Below, one piece after another: positions 7,313 through 62,545 of a stretch of DNA of 64,000 nucleotides. The notes under the pieces were generated by a model that was given only the letters and a program-made list of their open reading frames with translations, made no database searches and was not told the DNA's origin. Numbering within the stretch: position 1 is the first letter of the stretch; every line of letters begins with the position of its first letter. A program made the position numbers and the translations under genes. Source of the stretch: Eledone cirrhosa (Eukaryota); NCBI GenBank assembly GCA_964016885.1, contig OZ024742.1, positions 217,310,001 to 217,374,000 on the forward strand, given 5' to 3'.

Positions 7313-8471
7313 AGAGCAGTGCAAGCCATGTACAGAGGAGTTGTGAGTAAAGTGAGAATAGGAAGTAAGTTTAGTGAGAATTCAAGGTACAGGTAGGAGT
7401 TCATTAGGGTTCAGTTCTTAGCCCACTGCTATTCATCATAGTTCTGCAAACTATAAAAGAGGAGTTTAAAACTGGCTGTCTATGGGAAATTCTCTATGCA
7501 GATGATCTGGTCGTTATAACTCAATACATAAAAGAACTAGAGAAGTTCTGACTATGGAAATAGAATTTAGAATCAAAAGGTCTGAGAGTAGACTTAACCA
7601 AAACTAAAGTACTAGTAAGCACAGAAGAAGATAGGACCCTGATTCCTTCAGAGAAGTGACCCTGCCCAATCTGTAGAAAATGGGTAGGCATAAACTCTAT
7701 CTAATGTACACAATGTAAATCTTGGGTACACAAGAGATGTAGTGGGATAACAGGAAGACTAACAGGAAGGGAAGACTTTGTATGTAAAAGATACACAAGG
7801 GTAATCAAGGGAAGAGCATCAGTGACATAAAGCTTTTCCAATCATACGAAGGATCCATAGAAGTGGTTGATAGCTTCTGTTATCTAGGTAACTAAATTTT
7901 CAGTGGAGGAGGGTGCTCCGAGAGCATAATAGCAAGAATAAGGATAGAATGGAAGAGGTTTAGCAAGCTACTCCCACTGTTCACAACAAAAGGTTTCTCC
8001 CTACATACAAAAAGATGGCTGTATGACGCCTGTGTGCGAAGAGTGATGCTGCATGATAGTGAAATATGGGCAGTAACTGAAGAAAACATGCGGAAGCTGG
8101 AGAGAAATGAAGCAACCATGCTTTACACTGGTAAATATGAAAGAAAAGCAGAGCTTGGACGAACTGAGGGAGAAACTGGGTTTTAGAGGAATCTGAAGTG
8201 GTGTGCAAGAGAGAAGACTGTGCTAGTACAGACATGTGATGCACATGGATGATGATTGGTGGGTGAAGAAGTGCCAGGAAATCCCAATGAGAGGAAGCCA
8301 CAGTAGAGGCAGACCAAGGAAAACCTGGGCAGACGTAATGAGAGCTAATCTCGAATCACTAAGACTCACAGAGGAGATGACAAAAGAACATAGCAAGTGG
8401 AGAGATGCCGTGCTGAAAAGGACCATCCAACCCATGAGCATGGAAAAACGGATGTAAAATGATGATGATGA
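7313..8471 (+). mobile_element. Degenerate RTE LINE 3' fragment with (TGA)n tail
   Basis: VHxGSVLSPLLFIIVL, YADD and GRPRKTW motifs with stops and frameshifts; ends aacccatgagcatggaaaaacggatgtaaaatgatgatgatg. Confidence 0.88.
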
Positions 8472-8616: not shown

Positions 8617-9250
8617 CTATGGAATATAATGAAAATAACAAAAAATTGATACATCTTAACTATAATAAAGGAAGGTCTGCGGGATTGTGTTCAGAATATA
8701 TTTTTTTACCCCGTTTGTAAAATAAGTTGGATTACTTTGAATAAATAATGAATGAATATTACATAATTTATGTGCTAAATTTCGTGGCTGTTGATTAAAT
8801 ATATTTTATAGCTTATTTAAAGATCTTTAAAATTCAATTCTTTAAAATTATCAAATGTCAACACTTCCAGTTAGCGGCCGTTATATTATAACACTTATAA
8901 TCGCATATATTTCCGTCGCTAATTTTCTCCTAATGCAGTTTATATATTATGTCGTCTTTTTTTAATATATCATGGATTACTGATTACAGAAGACAGTGTA
9001 ACATAGACTTTGTTCAATTTCTGTGTATATTGTCAATTACGATTTTATTTGATGTATCATATTTACATGCATATATATTTGTGTATAATATCAATACACA
9101 CACTACACTTGCTAGCAGAAAACCACCCGTAGGGTGGTTTTTCTGCTAGTATACAGCAATTACCACAGACATACTTAATATATATATACTACAGTAACTA
9201 CCACAGCCACACTCAACACACAGTAGTTACACGGTAACACTCCATACATC

Positions 9251-12200
9251 ATCGGAACTCAGCACAAGATGAAAGTTTCAGTCTGCGTGATGATGGGCAG
9301 ATCTGGAGGTTTGTCAAGGCTGGTGAAACGTGGAAGAGAGATACCAGCTGGTCTGAGTGTGATCTACCCACAATAACTGGCAATGTAAAAACTGCTACAA
9401 CTCTGGGAAACTAAACCAGAACAACCTGCCACCCTCTACACACCATCATAAACTGCGAGCAGGGTACAAATTGTTGTCCTTAAATGCTCGCAGTTTATGC
9501 AACAAGATACATCTGTTCGAATCCTACGTCAGAAGCATCGACCCTGACTTCATCACAGTCACGGAAACATGGGCACATTCCTTACTCTGTGATGGGGTTT
9601 TCACCATTACTGGGTACAACCTTTTCCGCAAGGACCGCATTAACCGCCGTGGTGGTGGTGTGATGGTCTACGTTCGTTCAAACTTTTCGGTAATTCCTTG
9701 CGTTGATTTGAACGAATCACAGGAAGAAGTTTTTTTCTGTGACATACGTATGACCATGTCAACACTTCTGCTTGGTGTTGTTTATCGCCCCCCAAACTAC
9801 CATCAGGACACACAGCTTTGCGATATCCTCAGAGTTGCTGCCAAGAAAACAGCCACTTATGTGTTTATTGCAGGTGACTTCAATCATCCTGAGATCGATT
9901 GGGAAACCTTTCGTTGGCCACGGGGTGCAAACGATTTCCTTGAACTAGTGCTGGACTCAAACTGGTCACAAGTAGTCACCTCTCCAACAAGAGGTGACAA
10001 CACTTTGGACCTGATCTTCACCACTACTCCTGAAGTGGTTATCAGTTGTACTACTGAGGAACCTCTAGGCGACTCTGATCATGCTATGATCATTGCCAAT
10101 CTGGCACTTGAGGGCAGCAACAAAGACCAGAGCCATCTCCAATCTGCTTGCTTTGATTGGAAGAGGGCGGATTGGAACTTGTACTGCACTGAGCTACAGC
10201 GCCCAAACTGGCATGAGATGTATAACTCTGGAGATGTGAACTCTATACTCCAGAGCATCCTGGACTCAATATGGATAGCGTGTGCAGCATCAGTGCCACG
10301 GAAGCGGAAAAATAACCACCCCAAAAGTGCAATCTGGGAAACTTCAGCAGTCCGACTTGCCAGGAAAGAACGTCGGAACGCTGAACGGGAATATAAACTG
10401 CATAGATCAGATGCCAACAGAAAAAAGCGGAATAAATCTTCTAACCATCTCAAGCAAGTGACAAAGAAGGCAGTGCTTGAATTTGAACAGTGCATCGCAA
10501 CCAATCCTGACAGTAAGGTGTTCTGGAAATATGTTCATTCAAAGCAGAGACCTCACTCTCCAGTTGGTCCTCTTCGCAATCCCCACACAAGCCAGATCAC
10601 TGACGATCCCAAGGAATGCGCAGAACTCATTGCCGAGTGCTATGCAAGTATTTTTACTGTTGAAAACCAGAATGTACCATCTCCACCATCTCTAACATCA
10701 AATTCCATAACAACTATGGAATTTACACCTGCAATGTTGCGACGTCACCTTAAGAATAAGCGCAACTATGCCTCCCCTGGTCTTGATGGTGTGACATACC
10801 TGCTTCTCAAACGTGGCGGGGATTTCCTTTTGCGCCAGCTTTCTTTTTTCTTTCAATACTGTCTCAGCAATGGTGCTACTCCGGAGCAGTGGAAAACTGC
10901 CAGTGTCATTCCCCTGTTCAAAAAGGGCAACCGCATGTCACCTGTCAACTATCGTCCAGTCAGTCTTACTAGCTGTATGGCCAAACTGATGGAATCCTGT
11001 GTCAGAGAAACACTTTGGAACTTCTGGAGCTCTCACAGCCTCATCCGGCCCTCACAGTTTGGATTTATCCCTAACTCCAGCTGCTGTGATCAGCTTATCG
11101 AGTTCCTTGAGGACATCACCCGGATCACTGACAGCGGCTCATGGGTGGATGTTGTTTACCTTGACTTTGCTAAGGCTTTTAATTCTGTGCCACACAAAAG
11201 ACTTATGGCAAAACTCTCTGCAATGGGTGTGAGGGATGATCTTTTCGACTGGCTGAAATCCTTCATTCTCAGCCGAAAGGAAGTAGTCACGGTTCTAGGA
11301 CAGCATTCTTCACCATATGAGATGTCATCTGGTGTACCACAGGGATCTGTTCTTCGTCCTCTTTTGTTTGTGGCATATATTAATGACATAGATGCCAACT
11401 TACAGAATGCCACGGTACTAAAATATGCAGATGACATCAAGCTGTACCTTGAAATCAAAAGGACTGATCCTGAAATTTACAACTCTTTCCTACAATCAGA
11501 CCTGGACACAATGCAGCAATGGATCACAGACTGGCAACTGAAGCTGGCTGTGGACAAGTGTACCACCATGCATTTTGGAAGGAAAAATCCAGCGTCCACA
11601 TACTCCCTCCACAACACTGACATCAAAAAGTCCTCTTGTGAACGTAACCTGGGCATTACTGTCAGCAACGATTTGCGTTGGACAAAGCATGTCTCTAAGA
11701 TTGTCAAGAAGGCCGAGGGTGTCTTGGCATCACTCAGCAAGACCTTTGTTAGCCGCTCTCCAGCCATCTATTTAAAACTGTATACAGCTATGGTGCGACC
11801 ACACTTGGAATTCGCATCATCAGTCTGGAACCCCTATCTTGCTCGGAACATTGACCTCCTGGAAACTGTTCAGAGACGTGCAACCAAGCGCATACCCTCC
11901 ATCAGACACCTACCATACTCTGAACGCCTTGCTTCCCTGGGCATGGATTCATTGAAGCTCCGACGTCTGGCAGTGGACTTGGTGAATACCCACAAAGTTT
12001 TTAACCATCTCGCCAACTGCAACCCTGAGCGCCTCTTTGATCTCCATGTATCTAACACACGTGGACATGCCTACAAGATAAGAAAACAGCACAGCTCCCA
12101 TGACTTTCGCAGACATTTTTTCACGCTCAGAGTTGCTGAAACATGGAACAAACTGCCTGTGTCAATTGTTAGCTGCCGAGACACTGCATCCTTTAAGACA

Positions 12201-12508
12201 CTCATGCTTCCCGAAATACGCCAAAACTACACCTGATGTGCCCCTTCCATACACATGCATACATGTGTGCACTGTTCATTTTATTGATGTTTGTGCATTG
12301 CCCTATGTACTGTACATGCACTTTTTTGATGGGTTGTGGTGCACCTGGGCACTGTGCACAATATTTCATTATTGTTATTGTTATTATATCATGACTCATA
12401 CACTGTTTATTTTCCTGACATTTGTACATTATTCTATGTACTATACATGCACCTTTGATGAGTTGTAGTGCACCAGAGCACTGTACACAATAATTTCATT
12501 ATTATTAT
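9251..12508 (+). mobile_element. CR1-group LINE, 5'-truncated (ORF1 tail, complete ORF2, 3' UTR)
   Basis: The start matches the ORF1 C-terminus of the 21.9-25.9 kb copy (ESFSLRDDGQIW). APE plus RT ORF; 3' end aatttcattattattat; lies in the MBTPS1 exon 12-13 intron, antisense to the host. Confidence 0.93.
9405..12236 (+). CDS. LINE ORF2: apurinic-like endonuclease plus reverse transcriptase (no ATG start)
   Basis: Uninterrupted frame with APE motifs NARSL, ETW, GDFNHP, DLIF, SDH; RT motifs YRPVSLTS, QFGF, DFAKAF, GVPQGS, YADD; CR1-like C-terminus LYTAMVRPHLEF...VQRRATK...TRGH...WNKLP. Confidence 0.93.
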   Translation, partial: GKLNQNNLPPSTHHHKLRAGYKLLSLNARSLCNKIHLFESYVRSIDPDFITVTETWAHSLLCDGVFTITGYNLFRKDRINRRGGGVMVYVRSNFSVIPCVDLNESQEEVFFCDIRMTMSTLLLGVVYRPPNYHQDTQLCDILRVAAKKTATYVFIAGDFNHPEIDWETFRWPRGANDFLELVLDSNWSQVVTSPTRGDNTLDLIFTTTPEVVISCTTEEPLGDSDHAMIIANLALEGSNKDQSHLQSACFDWKRADWNLYCTELQRPNWHEMYNSGDVNSILQSILDSIWIACAASVPRKRKNNHPKSAIWETSAVRLARKERRNAEREYKLHRSDANRKKRNKSSNHLKQVTKKAVLEFEQCIATNPDSKVFWKYVHSKQRPHSPVGPLRNPHTSQITDDPKECAELIAECYASIFTVENQNVPSPPSLTSNSITTMEFTPAMLRRHLKNKRNYASPGLDGVTYLLLKRGGDFLLRQLSFFFQYCLSNGATPEQWKTASVIPLFKKGNRMSPVNYRPVSLTSCMAKLMESCVRETLWNFWSSHSLIRPSQFGFIPNSSCCDQLIEFLEDITRITDSGSWVDVVYLDFAKAFNSVPHKRLMAKLSAMGVRDDLFDWLKSFILSRKEVVTVLGQHSSPYEMSSGVPQGSVLRPLLFVAYINDIDANLQNATVLKYADDIKLYLEIKRTDPEIYNSFLQSDLDTMQQWITDWQLKLAVDKCTTMHFGRKNPASTYSLHNTDIKKSSCERNLGITVSNDLRWTKHVSKIVKKAEGVLASLSKTFVSRSPAIYLKLYTAMVRPHLEFASSVWNPYLARNIDLLETVQRRATKRIPSIRHLPYSERLASLGMDSLKLRRLAVDLVNTHKVFNHLANCNPERLFDLHVSNTRGHAYKIRKQHSSHDFRRHFFTLRVAETWNKLPVSIVSCRDTASFKTLMLPEIRQNYT

Positions 12509-19382: not shown

Positions 19383-19968
19383 CTGTAATATATGCAGATT
19401 GAGTGAGATGAAAAAAGAATATTATATCAAAGACCCTCTTTGTTAACTATGCTAGCATTAACTAATCCCAGCAGTGACCACTACTATAAAACTCAATCCC
19501 CTAAAAAGAAGAGATTGAACAATGTAGGAGTGGGGGTAAAAAAAAGATGGGAATGGTCATGGTTGTAATATAAGTATGCTCAAACAAAGCTGACTTGAAC
19601 CTCAGTTTTAACTATCAAAATGGTATCAGCATTTATATATTACCATCGTCATCGTCACTGATTTACATCATTTTTCATGCTTACATAGGTTAGATGTGTT
19701 GTCACATTCTGAGGCTAGATAGGTTAGGTGGCTACATCTCACTCATATGTTTCAGTCTAACAGTTCTACAGCCAGATGCCCTGCCTATGGCCGACCACTT
19801 CATGGCATGTTCCAGGTGCTTTTAGTCGAGGCACCAGCACTACCACTTGACAGGGTGGATTGGGTACTTTTTCATTGCAACACCAGCACTACCACCTTAC
19901 AGGGTGGACTGGATGCTTTTTATGATGGCACCACTTACAAGATGGTTTGAGTGCTATTTAGCATGGTA

Positions 19969-21880
19969 TTAGCAGACAAACTTAAGGATAGGTTTTACGA
20001 GTCCCTAATGCACACTACTGCTCTAACAAACGACAATGACTTCCTAATCATCGCAGGAGATTTTAACGGACACGTAGGTAAACACTGTGACGGATTCAAT
20101 AGAATCCATGGAGGCCACAGGTTTGGCACAAGAAATGAAGAAGGATTCAGACTTCTAGAATTCTGCGACACCAATGACATGTCGATATGTAACACAAACT
20201 TCAAAAAACCCGACAACCACCTGATCACCTATAGATCAGGGGAGCATTCTAGTCAGATAGATTTTATCCTCATCAGAGGACGTGACAAATGGACGGTCGT
20301 AAACACAAAAGCCTACCCTAGTGAGGAATGTACCTCCCAACATAACTTAGTTGTCAGCGACCTCACGGTCAGAACTAGACAAACCTGGAAACAGAGGCCA
20401 ACCTGGAGAAGAAAGCTCTGGAAGCTGAAAGACCCCTCAGCCAGTAACAGATTTAAAGATAGTTTACTCAACGCCTACGACAGTAAAGAAGAACAGATAG
20501 AGACATTCAATGTAGAAGAGCACTGGGAGTTCCTAAAAAATAACTTACTAGAGGCGACGGATGAGGTCTGTGGCTAGAGTAAAACCACAAGCAGGAGGAG
20601 AGTGACTTGGTGGTGGAACAATAAGGTAGATGAGGCAGTTAAGGCCAAGAGACAGGCATGGAAAGAATGGAAGAACGGGGGGAGCAGGGTACATTACATA
20701 GAGACCAAGAGGGAAGCTAGGCGACAAGTATACTTAACTAGGACAGAAGCAGAGGATAGAAAATTCAAGCATGTTTTGCAACGTGAGGACAAGAAACAGG
20801 AGGTGTTCAAGATTGCGAGGCAGTGTGACAGAGAGAATTGTGATGTCATTGGAGAGAAGTGTATCCAGAATGATAAAGGTGAGCTTGCCCTCACAAGTGC
20901 TGAGAAGAAAGATGCATGGAAGAGCCATTATGATAGATTACTAAATTAGGAGAATGCATGGGAAGAAGAGACCCTACTCCAAGTAGACCCTATAGAGGGG
21001 CCAGCAGTACAAGTCAGCAGCAGCGTAGTAAGTAAGGCAATCAAAGATATGGAGATGGGGAAGGCAACTGGTCCATCAGGTATAGCTGACGAGATGCTGA
21101 AAGCATCTGGGTCTGTAGGTCATACTATAACCACACATATTGTTAACAAGGTAATACTAGAAGGTGTCATACCAAAAGATTGGTGCAGTAGCATCATTGT
21201 CAACTGCTACAAAGGTAAAGGTGATGCATTAGATAGAGGAAACTATAGAGTTATAAAGCTGATGGACCAGGTCATGAAAGTAACAGAAAGAGTTATAGCA
21301 CAGCTGATTAGGGACCGGGTGAAACTAGATAAAATGCAATTTGGGTTTGTACCAGGAAGAAGCACCACTGATGCCCTCTTCCTTGTGAGGCAGTTACAGG
21401 AAAAGTACCTAGCTAAAGGTAAGCCACTCTACCTGGCATTTGTCGATCTCGAGAAAGCCTTTGACAGAGTTCCGCGTGCTATAATCTGGTGGGCTCTTAG
21501 AAAACTAGGAGTAGATGAATGGCTTGTGAAAGCTGTACAAGCCATGTATAGGGGAGCAGTCAGCAAAGTTAGGATTAGCAATGAGTATAGCGAGGAATTT
21601 AGCATACAGGTTGGTGTCCACCAGGGCTCTGTTCTTAGCCCTCTCCTATTCATCATAGTCCTGCAGGCAATAACGGAGGAGTTTAAGACCGGATGCCCAT
21701 GGGAACTCCTGTATGCTGATGACCTCGCACTTATAGCTGAATCTATGGTAGAACTAGAGAAGAAATTCCAAACTTGGAAGCAGGGACTAGAAAGAAAGGG
21801 TCTTAAAGTCAACATGCCAAAGACTAAGGTCCTTGTAAGTAGACGAGAAAACACAACCCAGATCCCCTCAGGGAAATGGC
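19969..21880 (+). mobile_element. RTE-clade LINE internal fragment (APE plus RT)
   Basis: ORFs at 19951, 20602 and 21049 share one frame broken by two TAG stops; motifs GDFNGHVG, QIDFIL, TWWWN, QFGFVPGRSTTDA, DLEKAFDRVPR, GVHQGSVLSPLLF, LYADD. Confidence 0.92.
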
Positions 21881-24800
21881 ATCTATGTCATTAATATATT
21901 CCACAAACAAAAGGGGGGGGGGGGGCAAGAACAGATCCCTGTGGTACACCAGATGACATCTCATATGGTGAGGAATGCTGTCCCAGAACCGTGACTACCT
22001 CTCTTCGATTGAGAATGAAGGACTTCAACCAGTTAAAAATATCATCCTTCACACCCATTGCAGAGAGTTTTGCCATAAGCCTTTTGTGTGGCACAGAATT
22101 GAAAGCTTTCGCAAAGTCAAGGTAAACAACATCCACCCATGAGCTACCATCAGTGATCTGGGTGATGTCTTCAAGAAACTCAATAAGTTGATCACAGCAG
22201 CTGGAGTTGGGGATAAATCCAAATTGCGAGGGCCGGATAAGACTGTGACAGTTCCAGAAGTTCCAAAGTGTTTCTCTGACACAGGATTCCATCAGTTTGG
22301 CAATGCAACTAGTAAGACTGACTGGACGATAGTTCACAGGTGATGTGCGGTCACTTTTTTTTAACAGAGGAATGACACTGGCAGTTTTCCACTGTTCTGG
22401 AGTAGCACCGTTGTTCAGACAGAATTGGAAGAAGCGTGATACCTGGTGCAGAAGAAAGTACCCACCACGTTTAAGCAGGTACGTAACACCATCAAGACCA
22501 GGAGAGGCATGGTTGCGTTTATTTTTTAGGTGACGTCGCAGCATTGCAGGTGTAAATTCCATGGTTGTAATAGAATCCGGTGTCATAGATGGTGGAGACG
22601 GTACACTCTGGTCTTCAATGGTGAAAATGCCTGCATAGCATTCAGCAATGAACTCTGCGCATTCCTTGGGGTCGTCAGTAACCTGGCTTGTGTGGGGATT
22701 GTGAAGAGGACCAATTAGAGAGTGAGACTTTGAGTGAACATACTTTCAGAACACCTTACTGTCAGGGCTGGTTGCTATGCGCTGCTCAAATTGAAGCACT
22801 GACTTTTTTGTCACCTGTTTGAGGTGGTTGGACGATTTATTTCGCCTCTTCCTATTGATGTCTGATTTGTGCAGTTTGTACTCACGTTCAGCATTGCAAC
22901 GTTCTTTTCTGGCAAGACAGACTGCTGCAGTCTCCCAAATTGGACTTTTGGGATGTTTTTTCCGCTTACGTGGCACCAATGCTGCACATGCTGTCCATAT
23001 TGAGCTCAGGATGTTCTGGAGTACAGTGTTGACATCTCCAGAGTCGTAGCACTCAAGCCAGTTTGGCCGTTGCAACTCGGTGCAGTAACAGTTCCAGTCT
23101 GCTTTATTCCAGTCAAAGTGAGCGGTTTGGAGATGGTTGTGGTTCTTGTTACTGCCCATGAGGGATAGATTGGCAATGATTATAGCATGATCAGAGTCAC
23201 CTAAAGGTTCCTCAGCAGTAACACTAATGACCGTTTCAGGAGTAGTGTGAAGAGTAGGTCCAAAGTGTTGTCACCTCTTGTTGAAGAGGTGACTACTTGG
23301 GACCAATTCGAGTCCAGCACTAGCTCAAGGAAGTCATTTGCACTTGGCAGCCAACGAAAGGTTTCCCAGTCAATCTCAGGGTGATTGAAGTCCCCTGCAA
23401 TAAAAACATAAGTGGCTGTTTTCCTGGCAGCAGCAGCTGAGGATATCACAAAGTTGAGTGTCCTGATGGTAATTTGGGGGAAGGTAAACGACTCCAAGTA
23501 GCAATGTTGACATGGTCATACGTATGTCGCAGAAAAAAATTCCTGCTGTGATTGGTTCAAATTAACACAAGGAATTGCCGACAAATTTGACCAAACGTAG
23601 ACCATTATACCACCACGACGACGATTAATGCGGTCTTTACGAAACAGGTTGTAGCCAGTTATGCTGAAAATCCCATCACAGAGTAAAGGATGTGCCCAAG
23701 TTTCCGTGACTGTAATGAAGTCAGGGTTGATACTTTTGACGTAGGAGTCAAAAAGATGAATCTTATTGCATAGACTACGTACATTCAAGGACAATAATTT
23801 GTACCTTGATTCCAGTATATGATTATGTGCAGGGGATGGCAGGTTGTTCTGATTTAGTTTCCCAGAGTTTTTTCAGTTTTTTTATTGTCAGTTGTTGTGG
23901 GTACAGTGTTTTCAGACCAGCTGGTACTCTTTTCCATGTTTCACCAGCCTTAACAAACTTCCATATCTGACCATCATCACGTAGGCTGAAGCTTTCATGT
24001 TCTGCCGAGCTGCGGTTTAAGGAAGCTGCAGCACGCAACTTTGGGCGGACATCAGTTGGAAGACCAGGGCGTGTTCGGAAAGCAATCCGACTTTCACGCC
24101 TAGCTTTATCAGAGGCTACAAGGTATGAACGTTCCTCAGTTGAGTTCGAAAACGACAGTCTAATTAACCTGGGTTTCGAGCCTGGTCGGCCAAGGCGTAG
24201 AGCACCCTTTGCGGGAGCACAGCCCAAGTCTTTGGATGAACTGGCAGCAAATGCCTGAAGATCAACTATGTCTTCTGGTACACCAATGGCAATCACTTCG
24301 TGGTTTGCAGATCCAGTGGCATTCTCAATGTGTCTAGGTTCAACATGAGGTACACAGAGATTTTTTAATATGGCACTCCGGTAAGATCCCTCATTGTGAG
24401 CTTCTACACGAACGCTTGATTTTATTCCCGCTATTTCTCGGCTTAAAACGGAAATCATTTGCCGTATTTCCTCAAACTCCGTATTGACGGTCGATTTTTG
24501 TTGTTGTTCTTCTCCTTCAACAGGGGGAGACACAGTTGTTGGTTGTTGTTGTTGAAAAGTAACGGGGGAGGAAGACATGGGTTGCTGTTGTTGAAGTCCT
24601 TCAACGGGGGTAGTAGCAGAACCTACGGTCGTTGGTTTTTGCTGTTGTTCAGGAACAATGGTAGAGGAAGACACGATCTTAGGTTTTTGTTGTTGTTGTT
24701 CGGTAACAATGGTAGAGGAAGACACGATCTTCGGTTTTTGTTGTTGTTGTTGTTCAGCAGCAATGGTAGAGGCAGACATACAGTCCAGGCACTGAAAGGA

Positions 24801-25193
24801 CCAATTTGTTAGCTGGACCATCTCCCAGAGTCCATCCATCATAGCAATATGATGTTTCTTGTTTTGGCCTGGGATCTTCCGGAAGCCTGTGGCGCATTGA
24901 AGGCAGACAGATGCGACAGGTTCCACATTCGACCCAACGATTACGGAACGAGTTTTCGGGTTCCGTACAAATATGGCAGATGTGATTTTCTGGGCAATGT
25001 TCTATTTTGGAACATCGACCAGTTTTGTCACATACTTCATCCATGGATATCACCAAGGCAATCTTGTTATTTCTGCCCATCCGTAAAAAAACACAATGTA
25101 AACAATATAGGTTTAGCGCACTTGATTACAATAGAAATAAAATGTTTGTTTTTTGTTTTGTTTTTTGTGAATTTTGTTTCTGTTTTCCTAAAT

Positions 25194-61042: not shown

Positions 61043-62545
61043 CATCATCATCATCATCATCATTGTTTAACGTCCATCTTCCATGCTAGCATGGGTTAGA
61101 CGGGAGTTGTCCCACTTGAGGCAAGGTTGGTCGGGTGACCGTGTCTCGCTCATATAGGACTATCTGGCAGGTTTTCTATGGCTGGATGCCCTTCCTAACA
61201 CTAACCACATTTACAGTGTGGAACTGGGAACGTTTTACTGTTACCTACACAGCCACATTACAGCGTGGACTGTGTTTTTTTTCTCGTGACACCTACACGA
61301 TCTCGATCTCATTATCTCATTTATTTGAACTGGATGTTGTGGTACCAACTTTACAGAGAGAGGGTGGTGTTGGTGGGAGTGGGAGGATAGGGTAGGGGTA
61401 GTGGATTGGGGTGTATATTTGGTTAAGAGGTGCCTACTGTAGGTTTCGCTTTGTACATAGGCAAGGAGAGCCGTCTGTATTACTGTGTAGTGCCAAAGAT
61501 CTCGGTCCAGTGACATTGTCTTAGAGAGGTGCAAGTGTGTAAGGTCGGAATTTATCAGATCGTCCCAGGTTTTTCTGGGTTTACCTGCTCCATAACTACC
61601 ATCAATTTTGATCACCCTGCACTTTTTTATACAGCTGTCATCTTTCATGTGCATCACGTGGCCATACCAACGTAGTCTTCTCTCAAGTAAACAGCATCTG
61701 ATCCCTCTTATTCCTAATTTCTCACTTAGTTCATTTATGCTTTGCTGTTCACATATATTACTATTACACATCCAACGGAGCATGCATGCTTCATTCCTTT
61801 CCAGTCTGCGCAGGTCCTCTGCACGTAATGCCCATGTCTCACTGCCATGTAGCATTGCTGTTCGTATACAAGCATCATACAATCTGCCTTTCATTTTTAG
61901 AGAGAAACCTTTTGTTGCCAACAGCGGTATAAGCTCTCTGAACTTTTTCCATCCTGTTCTGACTCTGGCTACTGTACTTTCAGAACACCCTCCACCACTG
62001 CTGATTTTGTCACCTATGTAACGGAAAGTGTCTACTATTTCTATAGAACCATCTGGGCAATAGTAGGAGCTAGTATCCTGTGGACACTTGCTACCTATTG
62101 CACCTGAGCATCGGCCACATATAAAGTCTACGTTCTTAGATAGTTTACCTATGGTCCCACTACATCTTTTATGTACTCATACTTTGCATTTGGGACATAA
62201 AATTGAATTTCTGCCTACTCCTTTCCTACACACTGAGCATGGCCATTTCCCTGATGGTACCTGTGCCTTATTTTCCTTTCTACAAACTAGGACTTTAATC
62301 TTAAACAAGTTAACTTTAAGGCTTCTTTTTGATTCTAGGCCATGCTTCCATGTTTGAAATTTCTTCTCTAGTTCAGCTATGAGCGTTAGATCATCTGCGT
62401 ATAGGAGTTCCCATGGGCAGCCGGTCTTGAACTCCTGTTATAGCCTGAAGGGCAATAATAAATAGGAGGGGGATAAGGACAGAGCCTTGGTGAACACCAA
62501 CTTTTACACTAAATTCTTCACAATATTCATTGTTAATTCTAACCA
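61043..62545 (-). mobile_element. RTE LINE 3' part with long 3' UTR and (TGA)n tail
   Basis: VGVHQGSVLSP, PWELLYADD, SGKWPCSVC, LHGSETWA, RRLRWYGHV, GKPRKTW; continues into about 430 nt of 3' sequence ending tgatgatg. Confidence 0.9.

Follow-up and report, generated by a model that had tools for sequence, protein, structure and literature searches.

How is the second protein of a LINE made when its reading frame has no AUG ahead of the catalytic core of its endonuclease? The question arises in a 64,000-nucleotide stretch of the Eledone cirrhosa assembly (contig OZ024742.1, positions 217,310,001 to 217,374,000; this whole stretch is called the window below), where ORF1 and ORF2 of a LINE copy overlap at the heptamer G_GGA_AAC, which we take to be the frameshift site of PEG10/Edr. 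Translation of ORF2 from bicistronic LINE RNA is an open question, for which the worked cases, L1 and SART1, use reinitiation; a conserved -1 site would be a second answer. The reading favoured here, with a probability of roughly 0.87, is that ORF2 is made by -1 programmed ribosomal frameshifting, yielding an ORF1–ORF2 fusion of about 1,400 aa. The relevant features of the window are:

9251-9414, + strand: what is left of ORF1 at its 3' side (the last part of the C-terminal domain plus the tail) in a young, 5'-truncated LINE copy of family A; ends TLGN* and is recognized by comparison with siblings
9360-9362, + strand: stop TGA of the ORF2 frame, bounding the ORF1/ORF2 overlap
9405-9411, + strand: slippery heptamer G_GGA_AAC (letters GGGAAAC), in the phase of ORF1
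9405-12236, + strand: ORF2 (APE endonuclease and reverse transcriptase; Pfam PF03372, PF14529, and PF00078), with its first ATG, 9663, inside the endonuclease
9411-9482, + strand: linker of the -1 frame up to the first endonuclease strand, free of AUG; its CTG at 9426 is the rival start, and none of its AGs has a pyrimidine tract
9412-9414, + strand: ORF1 stop TAA, directly adjoining the heptamer
9447-9499, + strand: long hairpin that begins 35 nt past the heptamer; its strength is high in family A and lower in family B; no Rfam family near threshold
12366-12388 (limits approximate), + strand: (ATT)n-like tail, the 3' end of the element, from sequence
23823-25080, - strand: ORF1 of the inverted family-B copy, interrupted close to either end; comprises a PHD-like Cys/His finger, a Q-rich region, a coiled coil, and an RRM-CTD
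23854-23863, - strand: heptamer and stop of this copy, which has decayed: its ORF1 carries a private 1-nt deletion and its ORF2 contains stops

The ORF1/ORF2 junction in families A and B

The heptamer, the adjoining TAA, and the ORF2-frame stop at 9360, as reported in the initial annotation of this DNA, are confirmed in the sequence. The heptamer is of the X_XXY_YYZ type in the phase of the upstream ORF, and the downstream ORF is open in the -1 frame, from 9363 to 12236 (957 aa). The overlap between the two ORFs, which contains the heptamer, measures 52 nt in family A and 18 nt in family B. The Asn codon of the catalytic motif (NARS) is at 9483, and the first in-frame ATG, 9663, lies 60 codons beyond it. 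The Asn homologous to it is required for retrotransposition in Zorro3 and L1, according to the part of PMC1965478 consulted; hence, ATG 9663, being downstream of it, cannot be the start of ORF2.

ORF1 had been annotated as ending directly before the TAA, and it does end TLGN* there, but only its tail is present: homology of the window copy to its siblings ends about 150 nt before the heptamer, marking a 5' truncation. ORF1 was therefore read from full-length young siblings, e.g., L010, which carry an intact ORF1 of 456 aa ending TLGN*. A 15-mer at the junction occurs twice in the window, against 0.21 occurrences expected even with two mismatches. The diverged inverted copy, previously offered as evidence of conservation, indeed keeps the heptamer and the stop, but a 1-nt deletion upstream puts its ORF1 in another frame through the heptamer, and the two copies are too alike around the site for strong evidence, so that the weight rests on distant relatives.

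Two further observations concern the surroundings of these copies. Just upstream of the truncated LINE, window positions 9112-9149 form a near-perfect inverted repeat with a 3-nt loop, possibly one end of a different mobile element. Fragments of a second LINE family, presumably RTE-like judging from its motifs, are found at 19951-21894 (+), 7500-8460 (+), and 61241-62176 (-) of the window; one of them borders the inverted family-B copy near 21890, the point at which the ORF2 of that copy breaks off.

In the 3.0-Gb genome there are 1,282 junction candidates; the best 40 of the 1,282 were scored, all 100% identical. Separately, 170 loci were fetched, of which 169 could be anchored, giving 124 distinct junction contexts. 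GGGAAACTAA is located exactly 78 nt before the Asn codon in 118 of the 124, the remainder being four point mutants and two junctions with linker deletions; the expectation that the heptamer is conserved across the family is thereby borne out, and its phase is kept in distant relatives as well. An AUG before the catalytic Asn is seen in a single distinct junction, a deletion copy, which leaves 123 of 124 without an AUG ahead of NARSL, as had been proposed from the window. With endonuclease-only queries, which involve no selection for the junction, 37 of 39 distinct copies are exact. Over the final 55 codons, 26 of 30 family-B loci remain in the TLGN* frame (exceptions: the window copy, L033, L048, and L056). 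Intact ORF2 frames of 945 aa and 957 aa are each found in at least 20 dispersed copies by hand count, hence, the AUG-less state belongs to recently mobile elements. When two foreign endonucleases served as queries for further diverged families in the same genome, the best 150 matches of each, which were the ones scored, all belonged to family A or B.

On contig C28 of the genome (G000 C28:124.7-126.4 Mb; L251–L254), a 5'-truncated family-A copy with intact ORF2 recurs every 32-40 kb. These identical copies were rejected as independent insertions, since they lie in a tandem unit; the further copies represent one truncated insertion and were left out of the counts. In the one unit that was read, a histone 3' stem-loop is accompanied by other tandem repeats, and the unit is possibly part of a histone gene array.

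Three family-B copies, L100 (G000 C4:367.26 Mb), L114 (C3:19.22 Mb), and L115 (C1:418.41 Mb), have the two ORFs joined into one frame through indels of the A6 run that precedes the heptamer, the open frames of L100 and L114 being 1381 aa. Such fusion is due either to slippage or to assembly error; as proof of a mobile natural fusion these copies were rejected, since they share no private variants.

Junctions of relatives and alternative routes to ORF2

In addition to the Pfam domains listed above, the best PDB match of ORF2 is L1 ORF2p, and no family, RNase H included, is seen on its C-terminal 178 aa. The C-terminal half of ORF1 is modelled (pLDDT 86.7) with the CC-RRM-CTD fold of human L1 ORF1p (Foldseek match to 2ykp, E 7.7e-7). 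The N-terminal PHD-like finger scores 0.89 in Atlas, with no Pfam or PDB sequence match, and a PHD domain here is a lead. We provisionally call these elements CR1-type on the basis of the tail and C-terminal motifs; the tree holds unnamed relatives only.

Among near relatives, P0001 has 69% identity over the ORF1 C-domain and an ORF1 ending in SVGN. In the sister lineage L121 (59% endonuclease identity) the junction reads CAG GGA AAC TAG, the ORF2 frame opens two codons ahead of the heptamer, and an AUG is found two codons before Asn, inside the first strand. In the junction alignment with L121, GGGAAACTA is the sole long invariant block between the ORF1 tail and the endonuclease. A contig end from the run coded X3 reads CAG GGA AAC TAA. 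Families A and B, L121, and P0002 form one clade with support 100/99.

Metagenome search gave 508 matches, of which the best 80 were used; all but L121 are at 32-40% identity. They form 44 clusters at 70% identity, 37 of which have an upstream ORF of at least 100 aa ending in overlap. Excluded before counting were L128 (poor anchor), L206 (no anchor), and the 7 of 44 clusters without a 100-aa ORF1; among these 7, an in-phase heptamer is present in L121, L136, L175, and L182 and absent from L162, L183, and L193. The upstream ORF is in the -1 arrangement in 35 of the 37 clusters with a long upstream ORF, the other 7 of 44 having none.

Expected counts were taken from same-length ORF1 windows. 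The strict X_XXY_YYZ pattern is in phase in 18 of the 37 lineages derived from the best 80 of 508 matches, vs. 1.5 expected, with 2 and 1 in the other two phases. GGA was then allowed as XXX, a class added after the data had been seen; the GGA-first variant is listed in the portion of PMC5009743 consulted. With this class included, an in-phase heptamer lies in the ORF1/ORF2 overlap of 34 of the 37 lineages (again from the best 80 of 508 matches), vs. 2.6 expected, the off-phase counts being 3 and 3, and the highest of 200,000 simulations 12. Three lineages (L161, L184, L200) have none. From the heptamer to the catalytic Asn the ORF2 frame is open over 81-471 nt, which by chance would hold in 0.5 of 34 lineages (best 80 of 508 matches), while upstream of the heptamer it closes at chance distance (median 16.5 nt vs. 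18.4 nt expected). An AUG before the catalytic Asn is found in 11 of the 37 lineages from the best 80 matches of 508. Anchoring on the downstream ORF1 peptide alone, we found GGAAAAC or GGGAAAC in 22 of 24 lineages of the same origin (best 80 of 508 matches); the preceding residue in these varies among Val, Ala, Pro, Met, Thr, and Lys, and the background frequencies are 27% for G3, 53% for GAA, and 40% for AAC. Conservation of the nucleotides exceeds what the protein needs: synonymous letters are fixed, and the letter before the codons is G whatever the residue. At the level of sequence, selection on the heptamer letters across distant lineages is evident.

The type of heptamer follows the tree: UUUAAAC and UUUUUUA occur largely with GDSL-esterase ORF1s, GGAAAAC and AAAAAAC in another clade, and GGGAAAC in the clade of families A and B, plus L177 and L182. 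As the 37 lineages fall in few deep clades, they are not 37 independent events. No relatives were found in the viral contigs searched. Since relatives that are many times more distant keep an in-phase slippery sequence, the second protein is likely made by a -1 slip.

Some lineages have a different arrangement. A relocated shift site is suggested by L141, L167, L179, L187, and L189, in which A_AAA_AAC coincides with an AKNL motif well inside ORF1, the ORF1 stop following 171-219 nt later; a fusion made there would lack the final 57-73 residues of ORF1. CCCH zinc fingers are found together with a weak PHD in the 758-aa ORF1 of L125 (118-2391), whose U_UUA_AAC is 339 nt ahead of the stop. In L161, whose ORF1 is of the PHD kind, the homologous position reads G_GGG_GAA and the catalytic Asn is preceded by an AUG; this lineage may have switched to reinitiation.

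Termination at the ORF1 UAA might also be followed by an AUG-independent restart in the linker, e.g., at CTG 9426, giving free ORF2p as in mammalian L1. This codon is in frame, has A at -3, and is common to families A and B, the strong hairpin, which would help the restart, begins 18 nt beyond it, and for L1 and SART1 the published model is reinitiation that depends on ORF1 (PMC2881922 and PMC1965478, in the parts consulted). However, reinitiation leaves unexplained the single phase of the heptamers, the fixed synonymous letters, and the opening of the ORF2 frame at the heptamer; L121 has no CTG at the position matching 9426; and in 13 of 34 lineages no more than 2-17 nt separate the ORF1 stop from the catalytic Asn codon that follows, which places the stop at the first endonuclease strand or within it. 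Neither layout known for reinitiation is found in families A and B: the TAA is followed by ACC or ATC rather than forming the UAAUG of SART1, and instead of the spacer and AUG before the endonuclease, as in L1, the ORFs overlap and the first ATG lies past Asn. We consider such a restart improbable.

Transcriptional slippage, by which the polymerase would add a base in a run of G or A, so that some RNAs carry a fused frame, is the least probable of the alternatives. Slippage on runs appears to occur here, given the fusion by A6-run indels upstream in 3 of the 39 distinct copies from endonuclease queries (L100, L114, and L115), though no other private variant is common to L114 and L115, and the fusions may stem from assembly error. 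Polymerase slippage needs no codon phase, yet the heptamers are 34 in phase vs. 3 and 3 off; moreover, runs of three are short, and family A lacks the A6 run.

A putative trace of the -1 site is also seen in ORF1 proteins. A profile of the ORF1 C-domain yielded 107 cluster representatives, of which 10 without the terminal W-x-R motif were dropped, leaving 97. GN is present in 75 of the 97 otherwise unconserved tails (shuffle mean 13.1, maximum 26 in 2000 shuffles), while reversed NG is present in 22; GN, EN, or KN is seen in 92 of 97, vs. 33.3 expected, floating 1-36 residues past the terminal motif and 0-25 residues before the protein end. In these protein sequences alone, none of the 75 GN is preceded by a residue lacking a G-ending codon, vs. 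13.4 expected; however, Ser or Gln precedes GN in 59 of the 75 tails, and this dominance of SGN and QGN means that shared ancestry inflates the test. Such tails are consistent with GN being the protein trace of G_GGA_AAC.

Conversely, GN or EN might be a protein motif of the ORF1p tail, the overlap incidental, and ORF2 expressed from a spliced RNA or by another route. In the GGAAAAC group EN does sit in a conserved ORF1 peptide, and protein tails alone cannot prove codons. But where DNA is present, codon choice is fixed so as to give the slippery form, G is the preceding letter whatever the residue, and esterase-type ORF1s have other heptamers (UUUAAAC, UUUUUUA) at the same junction. As to splicing, the linker has no AG with a pyrimidine tract, and none of the 124 junctions is a spliced copy; neither these junctions nor the endonuclease-only queries yielded a splice-like ORF1–ORF2 join. 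No RNA run is among the sequencing-run matches listed; contigs of two runs that may be RNA contain no joint, and two joints in another run lack GT..AG ends, observations too slight to bear on splicing or expression. This alternative we regard as very improbable, slightly less so than polymerase slippage. None of the three (slippage, reinitiation, or protein motif with splicing) explains the phase, the synonymous letters, and the opening of the ORF2 frame at the heptamer.

Sequence and structure downstream of the heptamer

The hairpin at 9447-9499, with fully complementary arms of 15 bp (9447-9461/9485-9499), has z = -5.7, and none of 200 shuffles is as good. The initial annotation, which saw no convincing conserved pseudoknot downstream, overlooked this hairpin. 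Its distance of 35 nt from the heptamer exceeds the 5-9 nt that is usual, and its conservation is limited: in family B it is weaker (z from -2.1 to -4.1), covariation is weak, with one pair varying among A-U, G-U, and G-C, the loose-end letters of one relative would not pair, and Rfam gives a sub-threshold match only. As a conserved stimulator the hairpin was rejected, since older family-B copies break it and the young family-B form breaks an inner pair. Folding without pseudoknots finds no structure 5-9 nt past the heptamer in families A and B (z from -0.3 to +1.7). In the GGAAAAC and AAAAAAC groups, z is -2 or lower in the first 60 nt in 3 of 26 lineages, most of the GGAAAAC group having no hairpin; hairpins within about 10 nt of the heptamer are seen in some relatives (L121, L151, L157, L158, L165, and L178).

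The suggestion that the adjacent stop is the stimulator fits the clade of families A and B, where the stop adjoins the heptamer, but not many relatives, in which the heptamer is kept 57-339 nt from the ORF1 stop (lineages from the best 80 of 508 matches); at the protein level, the stop is 0 residues from the motif in only 21 of 92 tails. A virus in which a stop 3 nt past the shift site is needed is cited in the accessible text of PMC5009743. For families A and B, our guess at the stimulator would be slow termination at the adjacent stop first, and the distal hairpin second.

In 21 of 24 lineages of the GGAAAAC group, L122 included (best 80 of 508 matches), GUGGUAGG follows the heptamer at a distance of exactly 12 nt. 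Within it, GTG GTA is the invariable spelling of the Val codons, while the codon of a later Val is free to vary. An RNA pairing partner within 200 nt is seen for 4 of 21, at different places, and was rejected as inconsistent. GUGGUAGG is thus a candidate non-structural frameshift stimulator. Its 12-nt spacing resembles the protein-triggered shifts of arteriviruses and cardioviruses; shifts of these viruses have 11-14 nt spacers, and protein stimulation is named for arteriviruses (PMC5009743, in the text consulted).

Predicted translation and known systems

Judged from the sequences, the conserved recoding signal at the ORF1/ORF2 junction appears real and strongly conserved, and the -1 frameshift reading holds on the absence of AUG in the family, the conservation and phase of the heptamer, and the absence of splice-like joins. 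A fraction of ribosomes would slip by -1 on G_GGA_AAC, with a tandem slip of tRNA-Gly and tRNA-Asn, joining TLGN to LNQN in a fusion of about 1,400 aa (456 + 941); most ribosomes would stop at the end of ORF1 and release free ORF1p, in a ratio to the fusion like that of Gag to Gag-Pol. The endonuclease–reverse transcriptase would enter the RNP via the ORF1 coiled coil of the fusion, there being no protease to cut it.

Across CR1-type LINEs, -1 frameshifting is probably a general and old route to ORF2, retained while ORF1 types (RRM-CTD, PHD, esterase) were exchanged and the shift site changed position. That this is so and, jointly, that at least one large clade shifts without RNA structure via the invariant GUGGUAGG 12 nt after G_GAA_AAC, is a tentative proposal, which we consider rather doubtful. 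If frameshifting operates as proposed, ORF2p of these LINEs would be the C-terminal part of an ORF1 fusion, the ratio of ORF1p to reverse transcriptase would be set by shift efficiency, as for Gag and Gag-Pol, and annotations that start ORF2 at the first AUG would be wrong; if the route is general, these LINEs would build RNPs from ORF1p and uncut ORF1–ORF2 fusion. The junctions also supply many natural eukaryotic shift sites, some without an evident structural stimulator.

The type of mechanism is known and has been asserted for amoebal LINEs; for CR1-type LINEs, to which these elements would belong, we have not found it in print. No report of a slippery site in CR1/L2 LINEs was found among the titles and abstract beginnings searched, a scope outside which most older subscription papers lie; early CR1 and Anopheles T1 papers reportedly noted overlapping ORFs, and may have proposed a shift. 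LINEs of the CR1/L2 lineage with a type IIC ORF1 (PHD + transposase-22; PMC4120745) resemble the present elements in an L1-like CC-RRM-CTD, in an ORF2 with APE and RT, and putatively in the N-terminal PHD-like finger; the word "frameshift" has 0 occurrences in that paper. The Dictyostelium APE-type LINEs TRE5-A and TRE3-A "require a -1 frameshift" according to a figure legend in PMC5911963; they differ in being amoebal and L1-like, with a zinc finger and an oligo(A) tail, and the legend, the part of the source seen, gives neither shift site nor experiment. For Paramecium LINEs, a +1 shift, reinitiation, or readthrough has been suggested (PMC5405496, part consulted).

The heptamer classes found here match those of the -1 sites of retroviral gag-pol and PEG10/EDR; GGGAAAC is listed with the heptamers most prone to shift, and frameshifting in PEG10 is stimulated by a pseudoknot (PMC5009743, the consulted part of which names no CR1/L2 LINE case of a -1 shift). 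In contrast to these systems, the present one is a non-LTR element with no protease, no capsid, and no structure found 5-9 nt downstream. Mammalian L1 and silkworm SART1 share the bicistronic LINE RNA and the dependence of ORF2 on translation of ORF1 (PMC2881922 and PMC1965478, as far as consulted), and the C-terminal half of ORF1 has a CC-RRM-CTD fold like that of L1 ORF1p; however, L1 and SART1 use reinitiation or UAAUG coupling and make separate proteins, whereas here the ORFs overlap without a stop–start AUG, and a fusion is predicted.
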